A stretch of DNA of 16,446 nucleotides from a virus (taxonomy: Duplodnaviria; Heunggongvirae; Uroviricota; Caudoviricetes): IMG/VR virus record IMGVR_UViG_2737471859_000001. One strand, written 5' to 3'. Under the pieces are notes generated by a model. That model was not told where the DNA came from and did not search any database. It worked only from the letters and a program-made list of their open reading frames with translations. This document shows, one piece after another, positions 6,694 to 16,057 of this stretch. The number at the start of each line of letters is the position of its first letter. Positions within the stretch are counted from its first letter, which is position 1. A program made the translations under genes and the position numbers.

Positions 6694-7803
6694 ATGACCG
6701 ACACCACCATGCAATTGCTCAGTCAGGGCACAGACCCCGTGAAAATGCCGGATTTTGATATTCTCGCGGAGGGTAAAGCGCTGTCAGGCGTGGCAGAGCG
6801 CCTGATGAGCCTGTCACTGACCGACAACCGGGGATTTGAGGCGGACCAGCTCACCATCACGCTGGATGATGCGGATGGTCAGTTGCAGCTACCGCCACGG
6901 GGCGCGCGCCTGACGGTTCTCATTGGCTGGAAAGGAGAACCGCTGACAGAAAAAGGCACTTACATTGTTGATGAAATCGCTCACGAAGGACCGCCGGACA
7001 GGCTGACTGTTTCAGCCAGAAGCGCAGATTTTCGGGATGAATTTAACGTTAAACGTGAAGTATCCTGGCATGATGTGACCGTTGAGCGCGTGGTATCTGC
7101 CATCGCTCATCGGTATGGCCTGAAACCGCAAATCAGCGAAATGCTGATGGATATCGAAATCGACCACGCCGACCAGACCGAAGAAAGCGACATGTCCTTC
7201 CTTACGCGCATGGCGGAAATGTTGGGCGCAATCACCACAGTAAAAAGCGGTAATCTGTTATTCATCATGCCCGGTGGTGGCGTGAACGCGCAGGGCCAGC
7301 CGTTGCCCTCGTTTGCCATCACACGCAGCAGCGGCGATCGCCATCAGTTCCGCATTGCTGACCGCGAGGCGTATACGGGTGTACGCGCCTACTGGCTTGA
7401 TCTGAATTACGGGAAAAAGAAAAAAGTCAGCGTGAAACGCCGCAAACCGCCAAAACCCAAAAAGGAGAAAAGCAGCAGCCGTGAAGGTGATTATATGGAA
7501 GGCGCGGAAGGCAATGTGTTTGTGTTACGCAAGACTTATCAGAACGAGCAGGCAGCAAGACGCGCAGCGGCGGCAAAGTGGCAGCAGCTACAACGCGGAG
7601 CCGCATCATTCTCCATCATGCTGGCACGTGGACACGCAGAACTCTACCCCGAAATGCATGGCACGGTAACAGGATTTAAAAGCGAGATTGATAATCAGGA
7701 CTGGATTATTGCGAAAGCCGAGCACACCATTGATAACAGCGGCTTTACCACGCAGCTTGAGCTTGAGGCAAAAATCCCGGAATGGATAGCGGAAACAGAG
7801 TGA
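6694..7803 (+). CDS. P2 gpD-like late control / tail protein D
   Basis: ATG at 6694 preceded by agggaggg; the listed ORF start at 6562 is an in-frame upstream extension. Product (~369 aa) resembles gpD family and is followed by ogr as in P2. Confidence 0.8.
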   Translation: MTDTTMQLLSQGTDPVKMPDFDILAEGKALSGVAERLMSLSLTDNRGFEADQLTITLDDADGQLQLPPRGARLTVLIGWKGEPLTEKGTYIVDEIAHEGPPDRLTVSARSADFRDEFNVKREVSWHDVTVERVVSAIAHRYGLKPQISEMLMDIEIDHADQTEESDMSFLTRMAEMLGAITTVKSGNLLFIMPGGGVNAQGQPLPSFAITRSSGDRHQFRIADREAYTGVRAYWLDLNYGKKKKVSVKRRKPPKPKKEKSSSREGDYMEGAEGNVFVLRKTYQNEQAARRAAAAKWQQLQRGAASFSIMLARGHAELYPEMHGTVTGFKSEIDNQDWIIAKAEHTIDNSGFTTQLELEAKIPEWIAETE

Positions 7804-7845
7804 GGAACTTAGAATAGCGGCAGCACCACGTTAAGGGAGGTCGCT

Positions 7846-8106
7846 ATGTTCCGTTGTCCGCTTTGTGGCGCATCTGCCCGTATCCGCACCAGTCGCCCGG
7901 AAAATGATTCAAACACCGTGCGGCAAAAGTATTACCAGTGTAACAACCTGGAATGCGGCGTATGCTTCTCAACACTGGAAGCTTTCCATAAATTCACATC
8001 GAAACACGCCTCCGGCGTTCACTCATCAGAAGGTATCCCGTGGCATGATCTGCCAGCTTCACACAGGGGAAACAATCAGATGAGTTTGCCTTTACCTCAG
8101 AATTAA
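7846..8106 (+). CDS. ogr: Ogr/Delta-family zinc-finger late transcription activator
   Basis: MFRCPLCG...RTSR...YYQCNNLEC matches the P2 Ogr C4 zinc-finger pattern; aagggagg RBS; 86 aa versus 72 aa for P2 Ogr. Confidence 0.85.
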   Translation: MFRCPLCGASARIRTSRPENDSNTVRQKYYQCNNLECGVCFSTLEAFHKFTSKHASGVHSSEGIPWHDLPASHRGNNQMSLPLPQN

Positions 8107-8297
8107 CAGGCAGAATTGCCGGAGTAACAAAAAAGCGATAGATTACGCGCGGGTGCCTTTCGGCTGATGGTCGGAGGGAATACCCGAAGGCCAGATGTGG
8201 AAAGGCCCCGGAAAACATTTCTGTTTAACCGAGGCCCTAACATATCTACCTTAAGCAAGTGATAGGTTAGCGCCTCTCCAACAAAGGAGCAAGCGCT

Positions 8298-8438
8298 ATG
8301 TCGCAAAAATCGCTTACAGCCATCACATTCTGCGTGACGGTAATCCTCATCATCTGGATGCTGCACGGTTCGCTGTGCGAAATACGGATGAGCTTCTGGG
8401 GAGCGGAGTTTGCGGCGTTCTTACAGTGTAAGCAGTAA
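8298..8438 (+). CDS. Hok/Gef-family-like small membrane toxin (type I toxin candidate)
   Basis: 46-aa ORF MSQKSLTAITFCVTVILIIWMLHGSLCEIRMSFWGAEFAAFLQCKQ: one TM helix followed by the SLCE...E.AAFL.C pattern seen in HokA/HokB-like proteins; aaggag SD 8 nt upstream; GC hairpins downstream. Confidence 0.55.
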   Translation: MSQKSLTAITFCVTVILIIWMLHGSLCEIRMSFWGAEFAAFLQCKQ

Positions 8439-8573
8439 GGAAACCGCGACGGGGGAGCAATCCCCCGTCAATCGGTTGCCAGGGTATGGTCGAAGTGGCA
8501 CCCAAATTTAAATTGAGGCCCACCAGTAAGAGTGGTGGGCTTAACGCTTATTTAAATTTGAAAGGAACTCTTT

Positions 8574-8870
8574 ATGAGTGAAATGGTATTTTGTCGCGGA
8601 TGCGGCAAGGAAATACATAAAGATGCCACATCCTGCCCCAATTGTGGAGCACCTCAAAGAACAGCAAGTTCAAAAAGCAGAATGACAGCCGCACTACTGG
8701 CTTTCTTTTTAGGTGGTCTTGGTGCACACAAATTTTATTTAGGTAAAGTGGGGCAAGGATTCCTTTACCTTATTTTTTGCTGGACATTCATTCCGGCAAT
8801 CGTGGCATTTATTGAGTTTTTTATCTATCTATGCACCTCTGATGAAGACTTTGCCCGCAAATATGGCTAA
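8574..8870 (+). CDS. Zinc-ribbon + TM2-domain small membrane protein
   Basis: 98-aa ORF: N-terminal CxxC-x15-CxxC (CRGCGK...CPNCG), then two hydrophobic helices around an HKFYLG motif (TM2 signature DRFYLG); AT-rich relative to neighbours; followed by a clean intrinsic terminator. Confidence 0.75.
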   Translation: MSEMVFCRGCGKEIHKDATSCPNCGAPQRTASSKSRMTAALLAFFLGGLGAHKFYLGKVGQGFLYLIFCWTFIPAIVAFIEFFIYLCTSDEDFARKYG

Positions 8871-8896
8871 TGCCTAGTGGGCGAATCAGAATGACA

Positions 8897-8930
8897 AACC
8901 CGCAGCGTAAAAACTGCGGGTTTTCTTTTT
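8897..8930 (+). terminator. Rho-independent terminator after the TM2 gene
   Basis: aacccgcag-(loop)-ctgcgggtt followed by ttttcttttt. Confidence 0.65.
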
Positions 8931-9018: not shown

Positions 9019-9062
9019 TTGTTATCATATCAGCAGCAGTAACCACACAAGAGGTGCCGCAA

Positions 9063-9260
9063 ATGACGCAAAATGTACGATGCAAAAATTGCAACAAACT
9101 ACTTGCCCGCGCCTCATTTCACTACATTGAAATAAAATGTCCGCGCTGCAAAACACTTAACAAGATAACGAGAGCCATCGAGCACCCCACACACATGAGG
9201 AGTTATGACCGTGGGGATCGCAATCCAGCACCAACCAGCACATACACCGGAACACACTAA
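9063..9260 (+). CDS. com: Mu Com-like zinc-finger protein (putative translational activator)
   Basis: MTQNVRCKNCNKLL..IEIKCPRCK..EHPT closely matches Mu Com as remembered; gagg SD 8 nt upstream of ATG 9063 (the ORF track starts at an upstream GTG, 9054); 3' end overlaps the methyltransferase ORF. Confidence 0.8.
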   Translation: MTQNVRCKNCNKLLARASFHYIEIKCPRCKTLNKITRAIEHPTHMRSYDRGDRNPAPTSTYTGTH

Positions 9261-10011
9261 GGTTTATCAGACTGACAATGCCACGCTCTGTCGTGGGAAT
9301 GCGCTGGAAATATTGCCGCTGATTGAGCCAGAAAGCATTGATGCCTTAATCACTGACCCACCTTACAGTTCGGGGGCGACACACAAGGCCGGACGCACCA
9401 ACCAGGGCAGCCATGCAAAATATCTGAACGGCGAGAACCTTCACCGCTTTGATGGGTTCGCGGGTGAAAACATGGACGCCCGTTCGTGGGCTTACTGGAC
9501 ACAATTATGGATGGCACAGGCACACCGCGCAGTCAGGCCGGGCGGTTATGCCCTGGTATTTACTGACTGGCGACAACTACCAGCTTTAACCGATGCGTTT
9601 CAGGCCAGTGGCTTTACATGGCGCGGCATCATTGCGTGGAACAAGGGGAGGGGGTCACGAACACCACATACCGGGTATTTCCGGCATCAGTGCGAATACA
9701 TTGTCTGGGGCAGCAAAGGCCATTTAGATAAATCGCCTTCGGGGCCGTTCGACGGCTGCATGACGTTCCCGGTTATCCCGTCAAAGAAAATGCACCCGAC
9801 CGGAAAACCAGAAGAACTAATGGCAGAGCTGGTCAGAACTGCGAATAGTGGCGGAACAGTCCTTGATCCTTTTATGGGGTCAGGAACAACGGGTGTGGCT
9901 GCACTGAAAGCAGGGCGAAAATTTATTGGTATAGAAACCAGTGATCATTATTTTGAGGTAGCAGCGCAGCGGCTTCGGGGGACTATTACCACAACCATTT
10001 CGACTACATAA
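9205..10011 (+). CDS. DNA methyltransferase, N6-adenine/N4-cytosine beta-class (DPPY ... FxGSGTT order); probably N6-adenine
   Basis: ITDPPYSSG (motif IV) precedes DPFMGSGTTGVAALKAGRKFIGIE (motif I), as in CcrM/PvuII-type enzymes. Start codon uncertain: ATG 9205 has a short SD spacing and overlaps com by 56 nt. No restriction endonuclease gene nearby. Confidence 0.85.
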   Translation: MTVGIAIQHQPAHTPEHTKVYQTDNATLCRGNALEILPLIEPESIDALITDPPYSSGATHKAGRTNQGSHAKYLNGENLHRFDGFAGENMDARSWAYWTQLWMAQAHRAVRPGGYALVFTDWRQLPALTDAFQASGFTWRGIIAWNKGRGSRTPHTGYFRHQCEYIVWGSKGHLDKSPSGPFDGCMTFPVIPSKKMHPTGKPEELMAELVRTANSGGTVLDPFMGSGTTGVAALKAGRKFIGIETSDHYFEVAAQRLRGTITTTISTT

Positions 10012-10113
10012 GACAAAGCCCGCATTTTTTGCGGGCTTGTCTATCCTTACTGATGTGGACAGTTTGTGGATGTTTATAAGAAATAAGCTAATAGAAACAA
10101 TCTGTTATCTTTA

Positions 10114-10137
10114 CAAAAAACGCGCCCGAAGGCGCGT
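10114..10137 (-). terminator. raiA rho-independent terminator
   Basis: Minus-strand hairpin acgcgcc-ttcg-ggcgcgt followed by TTTTTT, 25 nt downstream of the raiA stop. Confidence 0.7.
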
Positions 10138-10161
10138 TGGCGATACACTCAATATAAAGGA

Positions 10162-13354: not shown

Positions 13355-13416
13355 CCTAAAGAATCAAGACGATCCGGTACGCGTGATTTTCTTTTCACAT
13401 TAATCTGGTCAATAAC

Positions 13417-13445
13417 CTTGAATAATTGAGGGATGACCTCATTTA
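13417..13445 (+). promoter_or_regulatory. sigma-32 heat-shock promoter of clpB
   Basis: CTTGAA (13417-13422), 14-nt spacer, CCTCATTTA (13437-13445); matches the sigma-32 consensus CTTGAAA / CCCCATNT. Confidence 0.6.
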
Positions 13446-13483
13446 ATCTCCAGTAGCAACTTTGATCCGTTATGGGAGGAGTT

Positions 13484-16057
13484 ATGCGTCTGGATCGTCT
13501 TACTAATAAATTCCAGCTTGCTCTTGCCGATGCCCAATCACTTGCACTCGGGCACGACAACCAATTCATCGAACCACTTCATTTAATGAGCGCCCTGCTG
13601 AATCAGGAAGGGGGTTCGGTTAGTCCTTTATTAACATCCGCTGGCATAAATGCTGGCCAGTTGCGCACAGATATCAATCAGGCATTAAATCGTTTACCGC
13701 AGGTTGAAGGTACTGGTGGTGATGTCCAGCCATCACAGGATCTGGTGCGCGTTCTTAATCTTTGCGACAAGCTGGCGCAAAAACGTGGTGATAACTTTAT
13801 CTCGTCAGAACTGTTCGTTCTGGCGGCACTTGAGTCTCGCGGCACGCTGGCCGACATCCTGAAAGCAGCAGGGGCGACCACCGCCAACATTACTCAAGCG
13901 ATTGAACAAATGCGTGGAGGTGAAAGCGTGAACGATCAAGGTGCTGAAGACCAACGTCAGGCTTTGAAAAAATATACCATCGACCTTACCGAACGAGCCG
14001 AACAGGGCAAACTCGATCCGGTGATTGGTCGTGATGAAGAAATTCGCCGTACCATTCAGGTGCTGCAACGTCGTACTAAAAATAACCCGGTACTGATTGG
14101 TGAACCCGGCGTCGGTAAAACTGCCATCGTTGAAGGTCTGGCGCAGCGTATTATCAACGGCGAAGTGCCGGAAGGGTTGAAAGGCCGCCGGGTACTGGCG
14201 CTGGATATGGGCGCGCTGGTGGCTGGGGCGAAATATCGCGGTGAGTTTGAAGAACGTTTAAAAGGCGTGCTTAACGATCTTGCCAAACAGGAAGGCAACG
14301 TCATCCTGTTTATCGACGAATTACATACCATGGTCGGCGCGGGTAAAGCTGATGGTGCAATGGACGCCGGAAACATGCTGAAACCGGCGCTGGCGCGTGG
14401 TGAATTGCACTGTGTAGGTGCCACGACGCTTGACGAATATCGCCAGTACATCGAAAAAGATGCTGCGCTGGAACGTCGTTTCCAGAAAGTGTTTGTTGCC
14501 GAGCCTTCTGTTGAAGATACCATTGCGATTCTGCGTGGCCTGAAAGAACGTTACGAATTGCACCACCATGTGCAAATTACTGACCCGGCAATTGTTGCAG
14601 CGGCGACGTTGTCTCATCGCTACATTGCTGACCGTCAGCTGCCGGATAAAGCCATCGACCTGATCGATGAAGCAGCATCCAGCATTCGTATGCAGATTGA
14701 CTCAAAACCAGAAGAACTCGACCGACTCGATCGCCGTATCATCCAGCTCAAACTGGAACAACAGGCGTTAATGAAAGAGTCTGATGAAGCCAGTAAAAAA
14801 CGCCTGGATATGCTCAACGAAGAACTGAGCGACAAAGAACGTCAGTACTCCGAGTTAGAAGAAGAGTGGAAAGCAGAGAAGGCATCGCTTTCTGGTACGC
14901 AGACCATTAAAGCGGAACTGGAACAGGCGAAAATCGCTATTGAACAGGCTCGCCGTGTGGGGGACCTGGCGCGGATGTCTGAACTGCAATACGGCAAAAT
15001 CCCGGAACTGGAAAAGCAACTGGAAGCCGCAACGCAGCTCGAAGGCAAAACTATGCGTCTGTTGCGTAATAAAGTGACCGACGCCGAAATTGCTGAAGTG
15101 CTGGCGCGTTGGACGGGGATTCCGGTTTCTCGCATGATGGAAAGCGAGCGCGAAAAACTGCTGCGTATGGAACAAGAACTGCACCATCGCGTCATTGGTC
15201 AGAACGAAGCGGTTGATGCGGTATCTAACGCTATTCGTCGTAGCCGTGCGGGGCTGGCGGATCCAAATCGCCCGATTGGTTCATTCCTGTTTCTCGGCCC
15301 AACTGGTGTGGGGAAAACAGAGCTTTGTAAGGCGCTAGCGAACTTTATGTTTGATAGCGACGAGGCGATGGTCCGTATCGATATGTCCGAGTTTATGGAG
15401 AAACACTCGGTGTCTCGTTTGGTTGGTGCGCCTCCGGGATATGTCGGTTATGAAGAAGGTGGCTACCTGACCGAAGCGGTGCGTCGTCGTCCGTATTCCG
15501 TCATCCTGCTGGATGAAGTGGAAAAAGCGCATCCGGATGTCTTCAATATTCTGTTGCAGGTACTGGATGATGGGCGTCTGACTGACGGGCAGGGGAGAAC
15601 GGTCGACTTCCGTAATACGGTTGTCATTATGACCTCTAACCTCGGTTCCGATCTGATTCAGGAACGCTTCGGTGAACTGGATTATGCGCACATGAAAGAG
15701 CTGGTGCTCGGTGTGGTTAGCCATAACTTCCGTCCGGAATTCATTAACCGTATCGATGAAGTGGTGGTCTTCCATCCGCTGGGTGAACAGCACATTGCGT
15801 CGATTGCGCAGATTCAGTTGAAACGTCTGTACAAACGTCTGGAAGAACGTGGTTATGAAATCCACATTTCTGACGAGGCGCTGAAACTGCTGAGCGAGAA
15901 CGGTTACGATCCGGTCTATGGTGCACGTCCTCTGAAACGTGCAATTCAGCAGCAGATTGAAAACCCGCTGGCACAGCAAATACTGTCTGGTGAATTGGTT
16001 CCGGGTAAAGTGATTCGCCTGGAAGTTAATGAAGACCGGATTGTCGCCGTCCAGTAA
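13484..16057 (+). CDS. clpB: AAA+ disaggregase ClpB (Hsp100)
   Basis: Starts [10 protein letters not shown] after a gggaggag SD (the ORF track's 13472 ATG lies inside the SD); two Walker A boxes ([16 protein letters not shown]); internal GTG at 13928-13930 is the known ClpB80 start. Confidence 0.97.

Follow-up and report, generated by a model that had tools for sequence, protein, structure and literature searches.

Positions 8116–8503 of the window (the whole stretch of DNA that was analysed, 16,446 nucleotides of the Caudoviricetes virus record IMGVR_UViG_2737471859_000001) very probably form a self-contained type I toxin–antitoxin cassette of the Hok/Sok family, with an anatomy like that of the hok/mok/sok locus of plasmid R1. 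The locus has an R1-like RNA switch, but it is not a three-gene hok/mok/sok locus, because there is no conserved mok frame and no start codon at the aligned position of the mok AUG. Both traits belong to the Hok group catalogued as cluster 72, which keeps the whole R1-style RNA switch, lacks a conserved mok frame and is common in P2-like and Stx prophages. The features on which this description is based are collected in Table 1.

Table 1. Features of the cassette and its immediate surroundings, in window coordinates
Feature	Position	Strand	Description	Basis
ogr	7846-8106		gene directly upstream of the cassette	Pfam Ogr_Delta, 52.3 bits against a cut-off of 26.3
hok promoter	8116-8144	+	-35 TTGCCG 8116-8121, 17-nt spacer, -10 TAGATT 8139-8144	homology
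tac	8151-8165	+	5' end of hok mRNA, GGGUGCCUUUCGGCU; partner fbi (closed) or ucb (open)	
Sok antisense RNA (predicted)	8196-8256	-	~60 nt, start near 8256; putative ends	
ucb-like box	8200-8209	+	GAAAGGCCCC; partner of the GAGG region when closed, of tac when open	
GAGGC element	8231-8235	+	positional homologue of the R1 mok Shine–Dalgarno; no start codon after it	
Sok promoter	8264-8292	-	-35 TTGCTC 8292->8287, 17-nt spacer, -10 TAACCT 8269->8264	homology
dcb-like box	8272-8279	+	GCCUC 8272-8276, overlaps the hok anti-Shine–Dalgarno CUCC 8276-8279	
hok Shine–Dalgarno	8283-8289	+	AAAGGAG, GGAG at 8286-8289, 8 nt before ATG	
hok coding sequence	8298-8438	+	46 aa plus stop, peptide MSQKSLTAITFCVTVILIIWMLHGSLCEIRMSFWGAEFAAFLQCKQ	Pfam PF01848
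long-range helix	8300-8416	+	8300-8307 and 8310-8314 with 8402-8406 and 8409-8416	MFE, RNAalifold
hairpin A	8448-8469	+	3' stem-loop, predicted end of processed hok mRNA	
fbi	8488-8503	+	GGUCGAAGUGGCACCC; 3' partner of tac, 3' edge of conserved cassette	
hairpin B	8518-8540	+	outside cassette	

Borders, spread and toxin of the cassette

The cassette is cargo of a P88-like (P2-related) prophage, in which it directly follows ogr and lies close to the chromosome-proximal end. The initial annotation had placed the toxin locus directly after ogr, and the Ogr_Delta profile match to that gene bears this out. Conservation begins at about 8116 and ceases at 8503, and these sharp edges are common to P2-like and Stx phages; three loci that were compared are alike through GGCACCC and wholly divergent past 8503. 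Relatives were fetched by peptide similarity with a small Hok alignment as query. A genuine relative of the window cassette, with 82.6% nucleotide identity, is found in Stx2 phages in addition to their hokW-sokW pair (see below). The cassette is present in 1,545 of 5,426 complete E. coli genomes (~28%), where it occupies 1,967 chromosomal places against 17 on plasmids, and in PLSDB it is found on 35 records against at least 5,000 for the R1-type Hok. Thus R1 hok/mok/sok is plasmid-borne, whereas the cassette type of the window is prophage-borne. PADLOC has no model matching either the window Hok or the TM2 protein encoded downstream.

The 46-aa open reading frame, read in the initial annotation as a Hok-family protein, is one by the curated profile: PF01848 (HOK_GEF) matches residues 7–44 of the peptide with positions 5–42 of its 42, at 30.1 bits against a gathering cut-off of 22 (E = 3.7e-7). 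RefSeq/PGAP names the product ‘Hok/Gef family protein’ (WP_000078920.1), and PHROG 251 matches it with 82.8 bits. Alignment with known Hok proteins, proposed as a check in the initial annotation, revealed the expected similarity, with 39% identity to R1 Hok over 31 aa by BLASTP (E = 2e-7). The residues of the family logo, which in R1 numbering are M1, C16, T18, L30, C31, E32 and E41, are all present in the window peptide as M1, C12, T14, L26, C27, E28 and E37, and BLASTP places C12, T14, L26-C27-E28 and E37 opposite their R1 counterparts C16, T18, L30-C31-E32 and E41. The peptide has a hydrophobic stretch at residues 7–22. Purifying selection acts on the window-type Hok, dN/dS between cassette types being 0.13–0.50. 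All 24 peptide variants with complete cassettes are full-length, in a set that is biased because the loci were fetched by peptide similarity.

The C-terminal AAFL.C motif is presumably common to the window peptide and HokA of E. coli K-12. HokA is also the best NCBIfam match (the equivalog NF007290, E = 6e-9), but with 35.8 bits it falls well short of the equivalog cut-off of 89. The identification as HokA was rejected on this score and because, in the Hok catalogue of Escalera-Maurer et al., HokA falls in the 60%-identity cluster 93 and the window type in cluster 72 (bioRxiv 10.1101/2025.08.07.668861).

As far as the peptide goes, the present finding mainly confirms existing annotation, the type being already catalogued: the window peptide is identical to unique peptide 1628 of that catalogue, and cluster 72, one of its high-abundance Hok clusters, shows no protein-level difference from the window (bioRxiv 10.1101/2025.08.07.668861). 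The same study found hok to be over-represented in prophages. Two cluster 72 constructs were cloned there for toxicity tests, 72_1621, in which V16A is the sole residue difference from the window peptide, and 72_1589, which is the Stx-phage type of the cluster. Only three constructs are named as non-toxic and these two are not among them (bioRxiv 10.1101/2025.08.07.668861), so by exclusion 72_1621 would be toxic, and toxicity is predicted for the window peptide itself. The authors of the catalogue explicitly set mok, Sok and the mRNA ends outside their analysis (bioRxiv 10.1101/2025.08.07.668861); the RNA anatomy and the missing mok frame described below are therefore absent from it.

Predicted promoters and alternative RNA folds

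Both promoters were placed by homology because a generic promoter scan of 7800–8900 missed them, reporting no site at its threshold; each has at most 8 of 12 hexamer matches. At the same offset as in the window, relatives carry TTGCCG or TTGCCC as the hok -35 hexamer and TAGATT, TACAGT, TAGAAT or TAAATT as the -10. The published R1 hok -10 box is TATGAT at -12 to -7 (PMC9841398), a box also seen in the R1-type locus L192. From homology with this box, transcription of hok is predicted to start at G8151 or close to it, with a leader of about 147 nt. The untranslated leader of ~190 bp proposed in the initial annotation therefore survives as the ogr–hok spacer, which measures 191 bp, but the transcribed leader would be only ~147 nt. 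The Shine–Dalgarno noted there in front of hok can be read directly in the sequence, and a GGAG-type Shine–Dalgarno ahead of the hok ATG is kept across cassettes.

The Sok promoter, which could not be placed by eye in the initial annotation, can be predicted from the comparison of relatives. Its -10 hexamer TAACCT occurs in 97 of 99 distinct cassettes, and 86 of the 99 have a TTGC-type -35 hexamer exactly 17 nt away from it. The -35 overlaps the hok Shine–Dalgarno on the opposite strand. The R1-type locus has the homologous hexamers TTGCGC-17-TATCCT, and the -10 of sokW lies at the same position, as read from the sequences of primers YO-597 and YO-421 (PMC8621323). The Sok RNA predicted from this promoter would form a hairpin at about 8239–8204 followed by UUUCC; the minus-strand RNA 8257->8190 folds at -28.9 kcal/mol (z = -4.7). 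A terminator scan gave terminator-like matches at chance level.

The full-length hok mRNA folds far more stably than expected (z = -6.1; not one of 100 shuffles reached its stability). In the minimum free energy (MFE) structure 8151–8165 pairs with 8488–8503, joining tac to fbi, and this pairing is supported by 8, 11, 7 and 4 double-sided changes in alignment columns 10–13. Pairing of the 5' and 3' ends as in hok mRNAs had been suggested earlier; it is now predicted by MFE folding, recovered by RNAalifold and backed by covariation. In this closed state ucb 8204–8207 is paired with 8233–8236, the anti-Shine–Dalgarno CUCC is paired with the GGAG of the Shine–Dalgarno so that the hok ribosome-binding site lies in a hairpin, and the long-range helix ties the start-codon region to the 3' part of the hok coding sequence. 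In the open state tac 8155–8161 pairs with 8200–8206 and 8151–8153 with 8207–8209, and the GAGGC element pairs with GCCUC 8272–8276. Covariation links tac columns 10–11 to ucb columns 51/50, where two variable pairs have 6 and 8 double-sided changes, and links them to fbi as well, a three-way coupling in which both alternative pairings of tac are conserved.

Three elements were also predicted independently by RNAalifold: the pairing of the ends, hairpin A and the helix at the start codon. The last of these (helix 9) is 93% paired and has four pairs with double-sided changes. Across the alignment 85.4% of cells can form the pairs of the window fold, against 39–45% when the partners are slid, a percentage that is inflated because the tested structure was derived from the window itself. 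The aligned cassettes are related to one another. Double-sided changes occur in 172 cells, against 53–75 with slid partners, and none of 500 shuffles reaches the observed value. For the open-state helices 86.4% of cells pair against 31–57% when slid. Pairs of the GAGGC/GCCUC stem and of the anti-Shine–Dalgarno are mostly invariant or changed on one side only, so that covariation is uninformative for them, the GAGGC/GCCUC stem being almost invariant.

The arrangement of ucb, tac and the GAGG element is the same as in the consensus of Rfam RF01794. This family, named ‘sok’, aligns with the hok strand over its full model (1–157) at E = 2.1e-9, so that the search against Rfam hok/sok models proposed in the initial annotation did recover a relative, but at 47.9 bits the match is below the gathering score of 59, and the whole window gives no match at Rfam gathering thresholds. 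Despite the sub-threshold score the homology of the leader to RF01794 is clear; the curated threshold misses the cluster 72 subgroup.

Of the two 3' hairpins that had been annotated as features of the hok mRNA, the first belongs to the cassette, with borders one nucleotide wider on each side than the 8449–8468 given earlier. This hairpin A is 95.9% paired across the alignment, with compensatory changes in six of nine pairs, and is the positional equivalent of the R1 terminal stem, in which mutations destabilise the truncated mRNA (PMC9841398). By analogy, hairpin A would shield the truncated hok mRNA of the window from 3' exonucleases. The second, hairpin B, is present but lies outside the cassette: only loci with a TM2 gene downstream have it, and it does not follow the cassette in P88 or in the Stx phage. 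This distribution, together with the divergence past 8503, rules it out as a conserved element of the hok mRNA. It is possible that in the arrangement of the window it serves as a local weak terminator for hok transcripts; the terminator scan did not flag it because it has no T-run. An R1-type locus has an unrelated terminator hairpin just past fbi.

The missing mok frame and a proposed switch

In plasmid R1 translation of mok up to the hok Shine–Dalgarno is mandatory, and toxicity is abolished without it. The initial annotation saw no intact overlapping mok-like frame, and in the window stop codons at 8252–54, 8260–62, 8263–65 and 8268–70 indeed shut all three frames 30–46 nt ahead of the hok ATG. 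A conserved mok frame was sought across the relatives and none was found. In the window, as in 58 of the 99 distinct cassettes, every upstream open reading frame ends short of the hok Shine–Dalgarno, so that under an R1-type mechanism no synthesis of Hok would be expected. In 41 of the 99, frames with an upstream start, typically 60–90 codons long, run to the Shine–Dalgarno or past it, and among near-identical cassettes the upstream frame ends at -110, -43, -35, -27, +83 or +134 relative to the hok ATG. MAFFT aligns the mok AUG of R1 and of Serratia opposite ACC 8248–50, and it is for this reason that the window has no start codon at the mok AUG position. The ATA at 8242–44 was considered as a mutated mok AUG, the equivalent of the R1 suppressor G118A, and was rejected on the same alignment.

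The dcb-to-Shine–Dalgarno segment of the window is ~13 nt shorter than that of R1, and as a result dcb overlaps the hok anti-Shine–Dalgarno. In the mechanism proposed here a weak promoter would give rise to a stable hok mRNA of ~355–395 nt, which tac/fbi pairing would lock in the closed state with the hok ribosome-binding site buried. Once the 3' end had been slowly trimmed as far as hairpin A, fbi would be lost and tac left free for ucb. Pairing of tac with ucb would release GAGGC to bind GCCUC, which overlaps the hok anti-Shine–Dalgarno, and the hok Shine–Dalgarno would become exposed. A short, unstable Sok RNA made from the opposite-strand promoter would cover 8196–8256 and keep the ribosome-binding site closed, and cleavage of the Sok/hok duplex would be triggered by analogy with R1. 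When Sok synthesis stops, Hok would be made and would damage the inner membrane.

Calculated costs of opening the ribosome-binding site agree with this order of events. For the window RNA the cost is 15.3 kcal/mol at full length and 10.7 when truncated; with the Sok target masked the truncated RNA needs 14.9, and 11.2 with a control mask. The means for 35 relatives are 13.4 (full-length), 10.3 (truncated), 13.5 (Sok mask) and 10.4 (control mask). The full-length cost exceeds the truncated one in 32 of the 35, and the cost rises with the Sok mask in 29 and with the control mask in 10. On these folding models, trimming of the 3' end and binding of Sok may gate the hok ribosome-binding site directly. 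Truncated RNA constrained to have an open ribosome-binding site adopts an R1-like open conformation, a state ~10 kcal/mol above the MFE that appears under constraint only. In the ViennaRNA MFE of the truncated RNA the site stays in its hairpin and is not seen open, and for this reason the switch model is built on relative opening costs and covariation.

The balance tips slightly towards hok being translated without mok. A broader proposal, which we make tentatively and judge to be a little short of an even chance, is that the cluster 72 Hok group is a naturally mok-independent hok/sok in which the dcb–Shine–Dalgarno leader has been shortened, dcb doubles as anti-Shine–Dalgarno, the former mok Shine–Dalgarno GAGGC acts as anti-anti-Shine–Dalgarno, and trimming exposes and Sok hides the ribosome-binding site with no coupling through a leader peptide.

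The closed frames could instead mean that a short cryptic leader frame has taken the place of mok, starting at ATG 8195 (19 codons, stop 8252–54), ATG 8167 or AUA 8242, with its translation opening the hok Shine–Dalgarno and Sok blocking the frame. GAAGG stands in front of ATG 8195, which falls within the Sok-complementary stretch, AUA 8242–44 stands at an R1-like distance from its Shine–Dalgarno (GAGG + 7 nt), and the 41 cassettes with long upstream frames mostly start them at ATGs equivalent to 8167 and 8195. However, the end points of these frames flip between near-identical cassettes, ATG 8195 is missing in several members of the same group and in distant loci, and the aligned mok AUG position holds ACC. 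Moreover, the window frames stop short of the hok Shine–Dalgarno by 24 nt or more, whereas in R1 translation must reach it. We regard such a leader frame as unlikely. Equally, the locus might be a silent or attenuated relative of Hok/Sok that has lost mok, makes no Hok and hitch-hikes in prophages, like the mok-start and mok-stop suppressor mutants of R1. The stops that close every frame ahead of hok would fit this, as would the hairpin that holds the ribosome-binding site in every MFE prediction, and chromosomal hok loci are regarded as mostly inactive in K-12 (bioRxiv 10.1101/2025.08.07.668861). A decaying gene would not be expected to look as this one does, though: the peptide has the low dN/dS given above, its 24 recovered variants are all intact (in the similarity-fetched and hence biased set), and the promoters, the Shine–Dalgarno and the tac/fbi/ucb coupling are kept across phage types and genera, which neutral decay would not preserve. 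The missing mok frame is general in the Hok group rather than damage newly acquired by the window, and near-identical peptides would be toxic on expression, judged by their exclusion from the non-toxic list. A silent hok is accordingly rated quite unlikely.

That the spacer behind ogr holds a chance frame and chance hairpins without toxin–antitoxin function would be in keeping with the shortness of the frame (46 aa), the empty promoter scan and the chance-level terminator matches. This reading has a negligible probability and is already refuted by the curated PF01848 match, by homology that extends over hundreds of loci in which the module is sharply delimited and by strong covariation; the published toxicity, by exclusion, of the one-residue variant 72_1621 also speaks against it. 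If the preferred reading of direct hok translation holds, the cassette would be a natural case of a three-gene system simplified to two, and a tractable one in which to study what prophage hok/sok loci do in stabilisation, exclusion or the timing of lysis.

Relation to R1 and to hokW-sokW

The window and R1 have in common the conserved Cys, Thr, Leu-Cys-Glu and Glu residues of the toxin, the position of the hok -10, the 3' stem-loop, tac/fbi with the alternative tac/ucb, a GAGG element paired with either ucb or dcb, and a Sok promoter, predicted in the window, that has its hexamers 17 nt apart and is placed homologously. The toxins differ in length, Hok having 46 aa in the window and 52 in R1.

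The only prophage hok/sok studied so far is hokW-sokW of the Stx2 prophage Sp5 (Takada et al. 2021), in which HokW is toxic and is counteracted by sokW; phage release after mitomycin C was about twice as high with the locus, and the system was reported to aid lysis and release (PMC8621323). Like the window cassette it is prophage-borne, and its Sok promoter, which has experimental support, lies at the place homologous to the one predicted in the window. The two are not identical: HokW is a 51-aa HokD-like peptide (MKQQKAM...) of catalogue cluster 35, from which the window type differs. For the window cassette prophage stabilisation, exclusion of other phages and help with lysis are all plausible roles. 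The label ‘MokW-like host killing’ given to gp52 of P88 is a PHROG family name only, and the name ‘MokW-like’ in phage records misleads, since the gene is neither Mok nor HokW.

The hok gene, its family and its distribution

The window is E. coli chromosome with a P88-like prophage (Xuanwuvirus, Peduoviridae, P2-related). Its prophage genes run in the order tail genes, D, ogr, hok, TM2/zinc-ribbon gene, com-like gene and DNA methyltransferase, and beyond them lie the core genes raiA, bamD, rluD, yfiH and clpB. The initial annotation placed a Hok-type toxin locus directly after ogr; that observation is confirmed and its reading supported; loci of this kind were known before. The proposed 46-aa ORF encodes MSQKSLTAITFCVTVILIIWMLHGSLCEIRMSFWGAEFAAFLQCKQ, and the strong Shine-Dalgarno (SD) sequence ascribed to it is AAAGGAG, with GGAG 8 nt from the ATG. 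Alignment with the Hok family, suggested as a check, gave 30.1 bits for Pfam HOK_GEF against a cut-off of 22. The top NCBIfam model, HokA, scored 35.8 bits against a cut-off of 89, so the peptide is a member of the Hok family but identity with HokA is ruled out. BLASTP aligns it with Hok of plasmid R1, which carries the hok/mok/sok system, at 39% identity over 31 aa (E = 2e-7), and the conserved Cys, Thr, Leu-Cys-Glu and Glu positions line up. PGAP labels the ORF 'Hok/Gef family protein' (WP_000078920.1). The same gene in phage P88, gp52, is labelled 'MokW-like host killing' because that is the name of PHROG 251.

The peptide is also an exact match to unique peptide 1628 of a 2025-26 preprint cataloguing ~44,000 Hok homologues, where it belongs to the high-abundance cluster 72 (bioRxiv 10.1101/2025.08.07.668861). 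That study cloned 72_1621, which differs from our peptide only by V16A, and the Stx-phage type 72_1589; its text names only three constructs as non-toxic, neither of these among them. It finds prophages enriched in hok and gives a conserved-residue logo, but left out analysis of mok, Sok (the antisense antitoxin RNA) and the mRNA ends. The dN/dS of the peptide (0.13-0.50) points to purifying selection despite the missing conserved mok frame. None of the 24 peptide variants from complete cassettes is shortened, a biased figure as the loci were fetched by peptide similarity.

The cassette is very common prophage cargo, already annotated and catalogued. Of 5,426 complete E. coli genomes, 1,545 carry it, with up to seven copies in one genome, at 1,967 chromosomal versus 17 plasmid places; PLSDB holds 35 plasmid records with it versus at least 5,000 with R1-type Hok. 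PADLOC has no model for it. Candidate roles are post-segregational stabilisation of the prophage, exclusion of other phages by abortive infection, and help with lysis. Exclusion of T4 by R1 hok/sok has been reported, as cited in PMC8621323, and the hokW-sokW pair of the Stx2 prophage Sp5 reportedly helps lysis (PMC8621323). HokW is a HokD-like protein of 51 aa, of a different type from the 46-aa Hok. Stx2a-converting phages, e.g. L003 (MN067333.1, 1521-1875), carry a true relative of the window cassette (82.6% nucleotide identity, 46-aa Hok, type 72_1589), additional to and distinct from the studied hokW-sokW and unannotated in many Stx2a phage records. One viral contig, L128, apparently has two cassettes of the window Hok type within ~1 kb, at 362-717 (extracted) and ~1354-1710 (tblastn match 1501-1638).

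The hok mRNA and its predicted antisense partner

Features in and around the hok cassette, in window coordinates
Feature	Position	Strand	Basis or detail
ogr	7846-8106		Pfam Ogr_Delta, 52.3 bits
Predicted hok promoter	-35 TTGCCG 8116-8121; 17-nt spacer; -10 TAGATT 8139-8144	+	homology with R1 -10 box
Predicted hok transcription start	G8151	+	homology with R1 hok -10 box
Predicted Sok RNA	~8256->8196	-	~60 nt; stable predicted hairpin, then UUUCC
Predicted Sok promoter	-35 TTGCTC 8292->8287; 17-nt spacer; -10 TAACCT 8269->8264	-	homology
hok SD (GGAG)	8286-8289	+	within AAAGGAG
hok ORF	8298-8438	+	46 aa
Hairpin A	8448-8469
Hairpin B	8518-8540
TM2 protein gene	8574-8870		98 aa; Pfam TM2, 68.6 bits
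com-like gene and methyltransferase	9054-10011		PHROG 13819 (com-like)
Hairpin after methyltransferase stop	10018-10036
raiA terminator	10136->10121	-	CGCGCC-TTCG-GGCGCG, then TTTTTT
RyfD sRNA	13365-13503		Rfam RF02768, 125 bits

The R1 hok -10 box lies at -12 to -7 (PMC9841398), and the hexamers of the window promoter are conserved among relatives. The suggested Rfam search did return a match, RF01794 at 8151-8308 (47.9 bits, E = 2e-9), which falls below the gathering score of 59. This model, named 'sok antitoxin', matches the hok mRNA strand with a consensus ending at the hok AUG, and so models the hok leader, the target of Sok, rather than Sok. Its gathering score leaves out this very common cassette.

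For the RNA 8151-8504 the computed folding energy is -158 kcal/mol (z = -6.1), and the hok-like 5'/3' pairing that had been postulated appears in the predicted fold, where the first 15 nt (tac, the 5' end) pair with 8488-8503 (fbi, its 3' partner). An alignment of 35 diverse cassettes, including distant loci of Erwinia, Serratia and Chimaeribacter, led RNAalifold independently to the end pairing, hairpin A and a helix between the start-codon region and the 3' coding part. When the window's own fold was projected onto this alignment of related, not independent sequences, 85.4% of cells were paired versus 39-45% with partners slid, a percentage favoured by taking the structure from one member; double-sided changes, less affected by that choice, numbered 172 cells versus 53-75. 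None of 500 shuffles reached the observed values. Compensatory changes fall in columns 10-13 of the tac/fbi helix, and six of the nine hairpin A pairs show them too.

On the opposite strand, the R1-type locus has TTGCGC-17-TATCCT at exactly the position of the predicted window Sok promoter, and the sokW promoter lies there as well, judging from the sequences of the probe and of the mutagenic primers (PMC8621323). Of 99 distinct cassettes, 97 contain the TAACCT hexamer; a TTGC-type -35 with the 17-nt spacing occurs in 86. The predicted Sok RNA folds at -28.9 kcal/mol (z = -4.7). Hairpin A on the minus strand (8447-8470), followed by CGGTTTCCTT, was flagged as terminator-like; regional hits are at chance level (2 versus 1.4 expected).

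The missing mok frame and a proposed switch

In R1, translation of mok has to get as far as the hok SD. The absence of an intact mok frame, claimed from inspection, holds: TAA 8252-54, TGA 8260-62, TAG 8263-65 and TAG 8268-70 close the three frames, and in the window the start of hok is not overlapped by any plus-strand ORF of at least 20 codons. Opposite the R1/Serratia mok AUG the window shows ACC when the sequences are aligned, or AUA when SD spacing is the guide; neither is a usable start. Of the 99 distinct cassettes recovered complete, 58 lack any ORF with an ATG, GTG or TTG start that comes within 14 nt of the hok ATG. In the remaining 41, ORFs begin at upstream starts, mostly ATGs equivalent to 8167 or 8195, and ATG 8195 is absent from several members of the 35-cassette alignment. 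Moreover, the ends of these ORFs shift from one near-identical cassette to another (-110, -43, -35, -27, +83 and +134, counted from the hok ATG), which is the behaviour of a non-coding leader.

Possible mok-independent control of hok, the one testable twist of the locus, was modelled through the cost of opening the hok ribosome-binding site (8283-8303) in the window and 35 relatives.

Computed cost of opening the hok ribosome-binding site (kcal/mol)
RNA	Window	Mean of 35 relatives
Full-length	15.3	13.4
Truncated after hairpin A	10.7	10.3
Truncated, mask on the stretch complementary to Sok	14.9	13.5
Truncated, equal-length coding-region control mask	11.2	10.4

The full-length RNA costs more to open than the truncated one in 32 of 35 relatives, and masking the stretch complementary to Sok makes opening costlier in 29, versus 10 for the control mask. 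With the site forced open, the truncated RNA folds into an R1-style open conformation in which tac pairs with the internal box ucb (8151-61 with 8200-09) and GAGGC 8231-35 with GCCUC 8272-76. As GCCUC overlaps the hok anti-SD CUCC (8276-79), this second stem would free the SD directly. In the proposed switch, truncation of the 3' end after hairpin A would cheapen opening of the site, tac/ucb pairing and the GAGGC/GCCUC stem would expose the SD without mok, and Sok binding to the truncated RNA would make the site harder to open. Columns 10-11 of tac co-vary with fbi and also with ucb, a coupling expected of a two-state switch; Gultyaev et al. (1997) reportedly found coupled covariation of this kind in the hok family. 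The model has its weak points: the open state lies ~10 kcal/mol above the minimum free energy, the GAGGC/GCCUC pairs are nearly invariant, so that covariation is silent on them, and the 35 sequences share ancestry. A literature search, with key subscription papers outside it, found no description of a missing conserved mok frame with the remaining switch intact, the sole aspect of the locus for which we did not find one.

Cassette borders and neighbouring genes

Aligned together, the window, P88 and an Stx2 phage match almost without a break from the promoter region (~8116) to GGCACCC (8497-8503), beyond which the three sequences are mutually unrelated; the Stx2-phage match spans just this block. 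Context varies with peptide type: the window type directly follows ogr in 68 of 77 fetched loci, and other phage backgrounds, without ogr upstream, harbour the Stx type (31 loci) and the MSQKPLKTTV type (29 loci). Both hairpins noted behind hok are present, but only hairpin A can be kept as a cassette element. Among the fetched loci, hairpin B occurs only where a TM2 gene follows (three loci, the window and the near-identical genome L001), which makes it part of the downstream module or junction. The R1-type locus has an unrelated terminator hairpin just after fbi, and by this analogy hairpin B may be a local terminator.

Two copies of the palindrome ATTTAAAT flank hairpin B (8506-8513 and 8551-8558). 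The 70-bp block 8504-8573 was found only in loci with a TM2 gene after the cassette, and has the look of a scar from a junction or insertion, or of a regulatory region of the TM2 module. In many IMG/VR provirus contigs the sequence breaks off precisely with the stop codon of hok (locus length 1641; L019, L024, L027, L028, L037, L040, L047, L053, L055, L057, L062, L063, L065, L082, L084, L088, L090, L091, L093, L095 and others). Hairpin A, fbi and the rest of the hok 3' UTR are thereby lost, apparently through trimming of the provirus boundary to the last gene called.

The protein encoded directly after hok, a variable prophage cargo, has an N-terminal zinc ribbon and a TM2 domain (PHROG 10292/10680, function unknown) and gave no PADLOC match. 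Farther on come two overlapping genes: the first encodes a Com-like translational regulator with a zinc finger ('gpCom control of modification') and runs into the start of the second, an N6/N4 DNA methyltransferase with matches to type II or orphan MTase models. They are arranged like com-mom of Mu, but with an ordinary methyltransferase, and the pair stands at the extreme end of the prophage. The prophage-chromosome junction falls within 10012-10161, and no tRNA gene was found in the window. RyfD, upstream of clpB in the flanking chromosome, is unrelated to the hok cassette.
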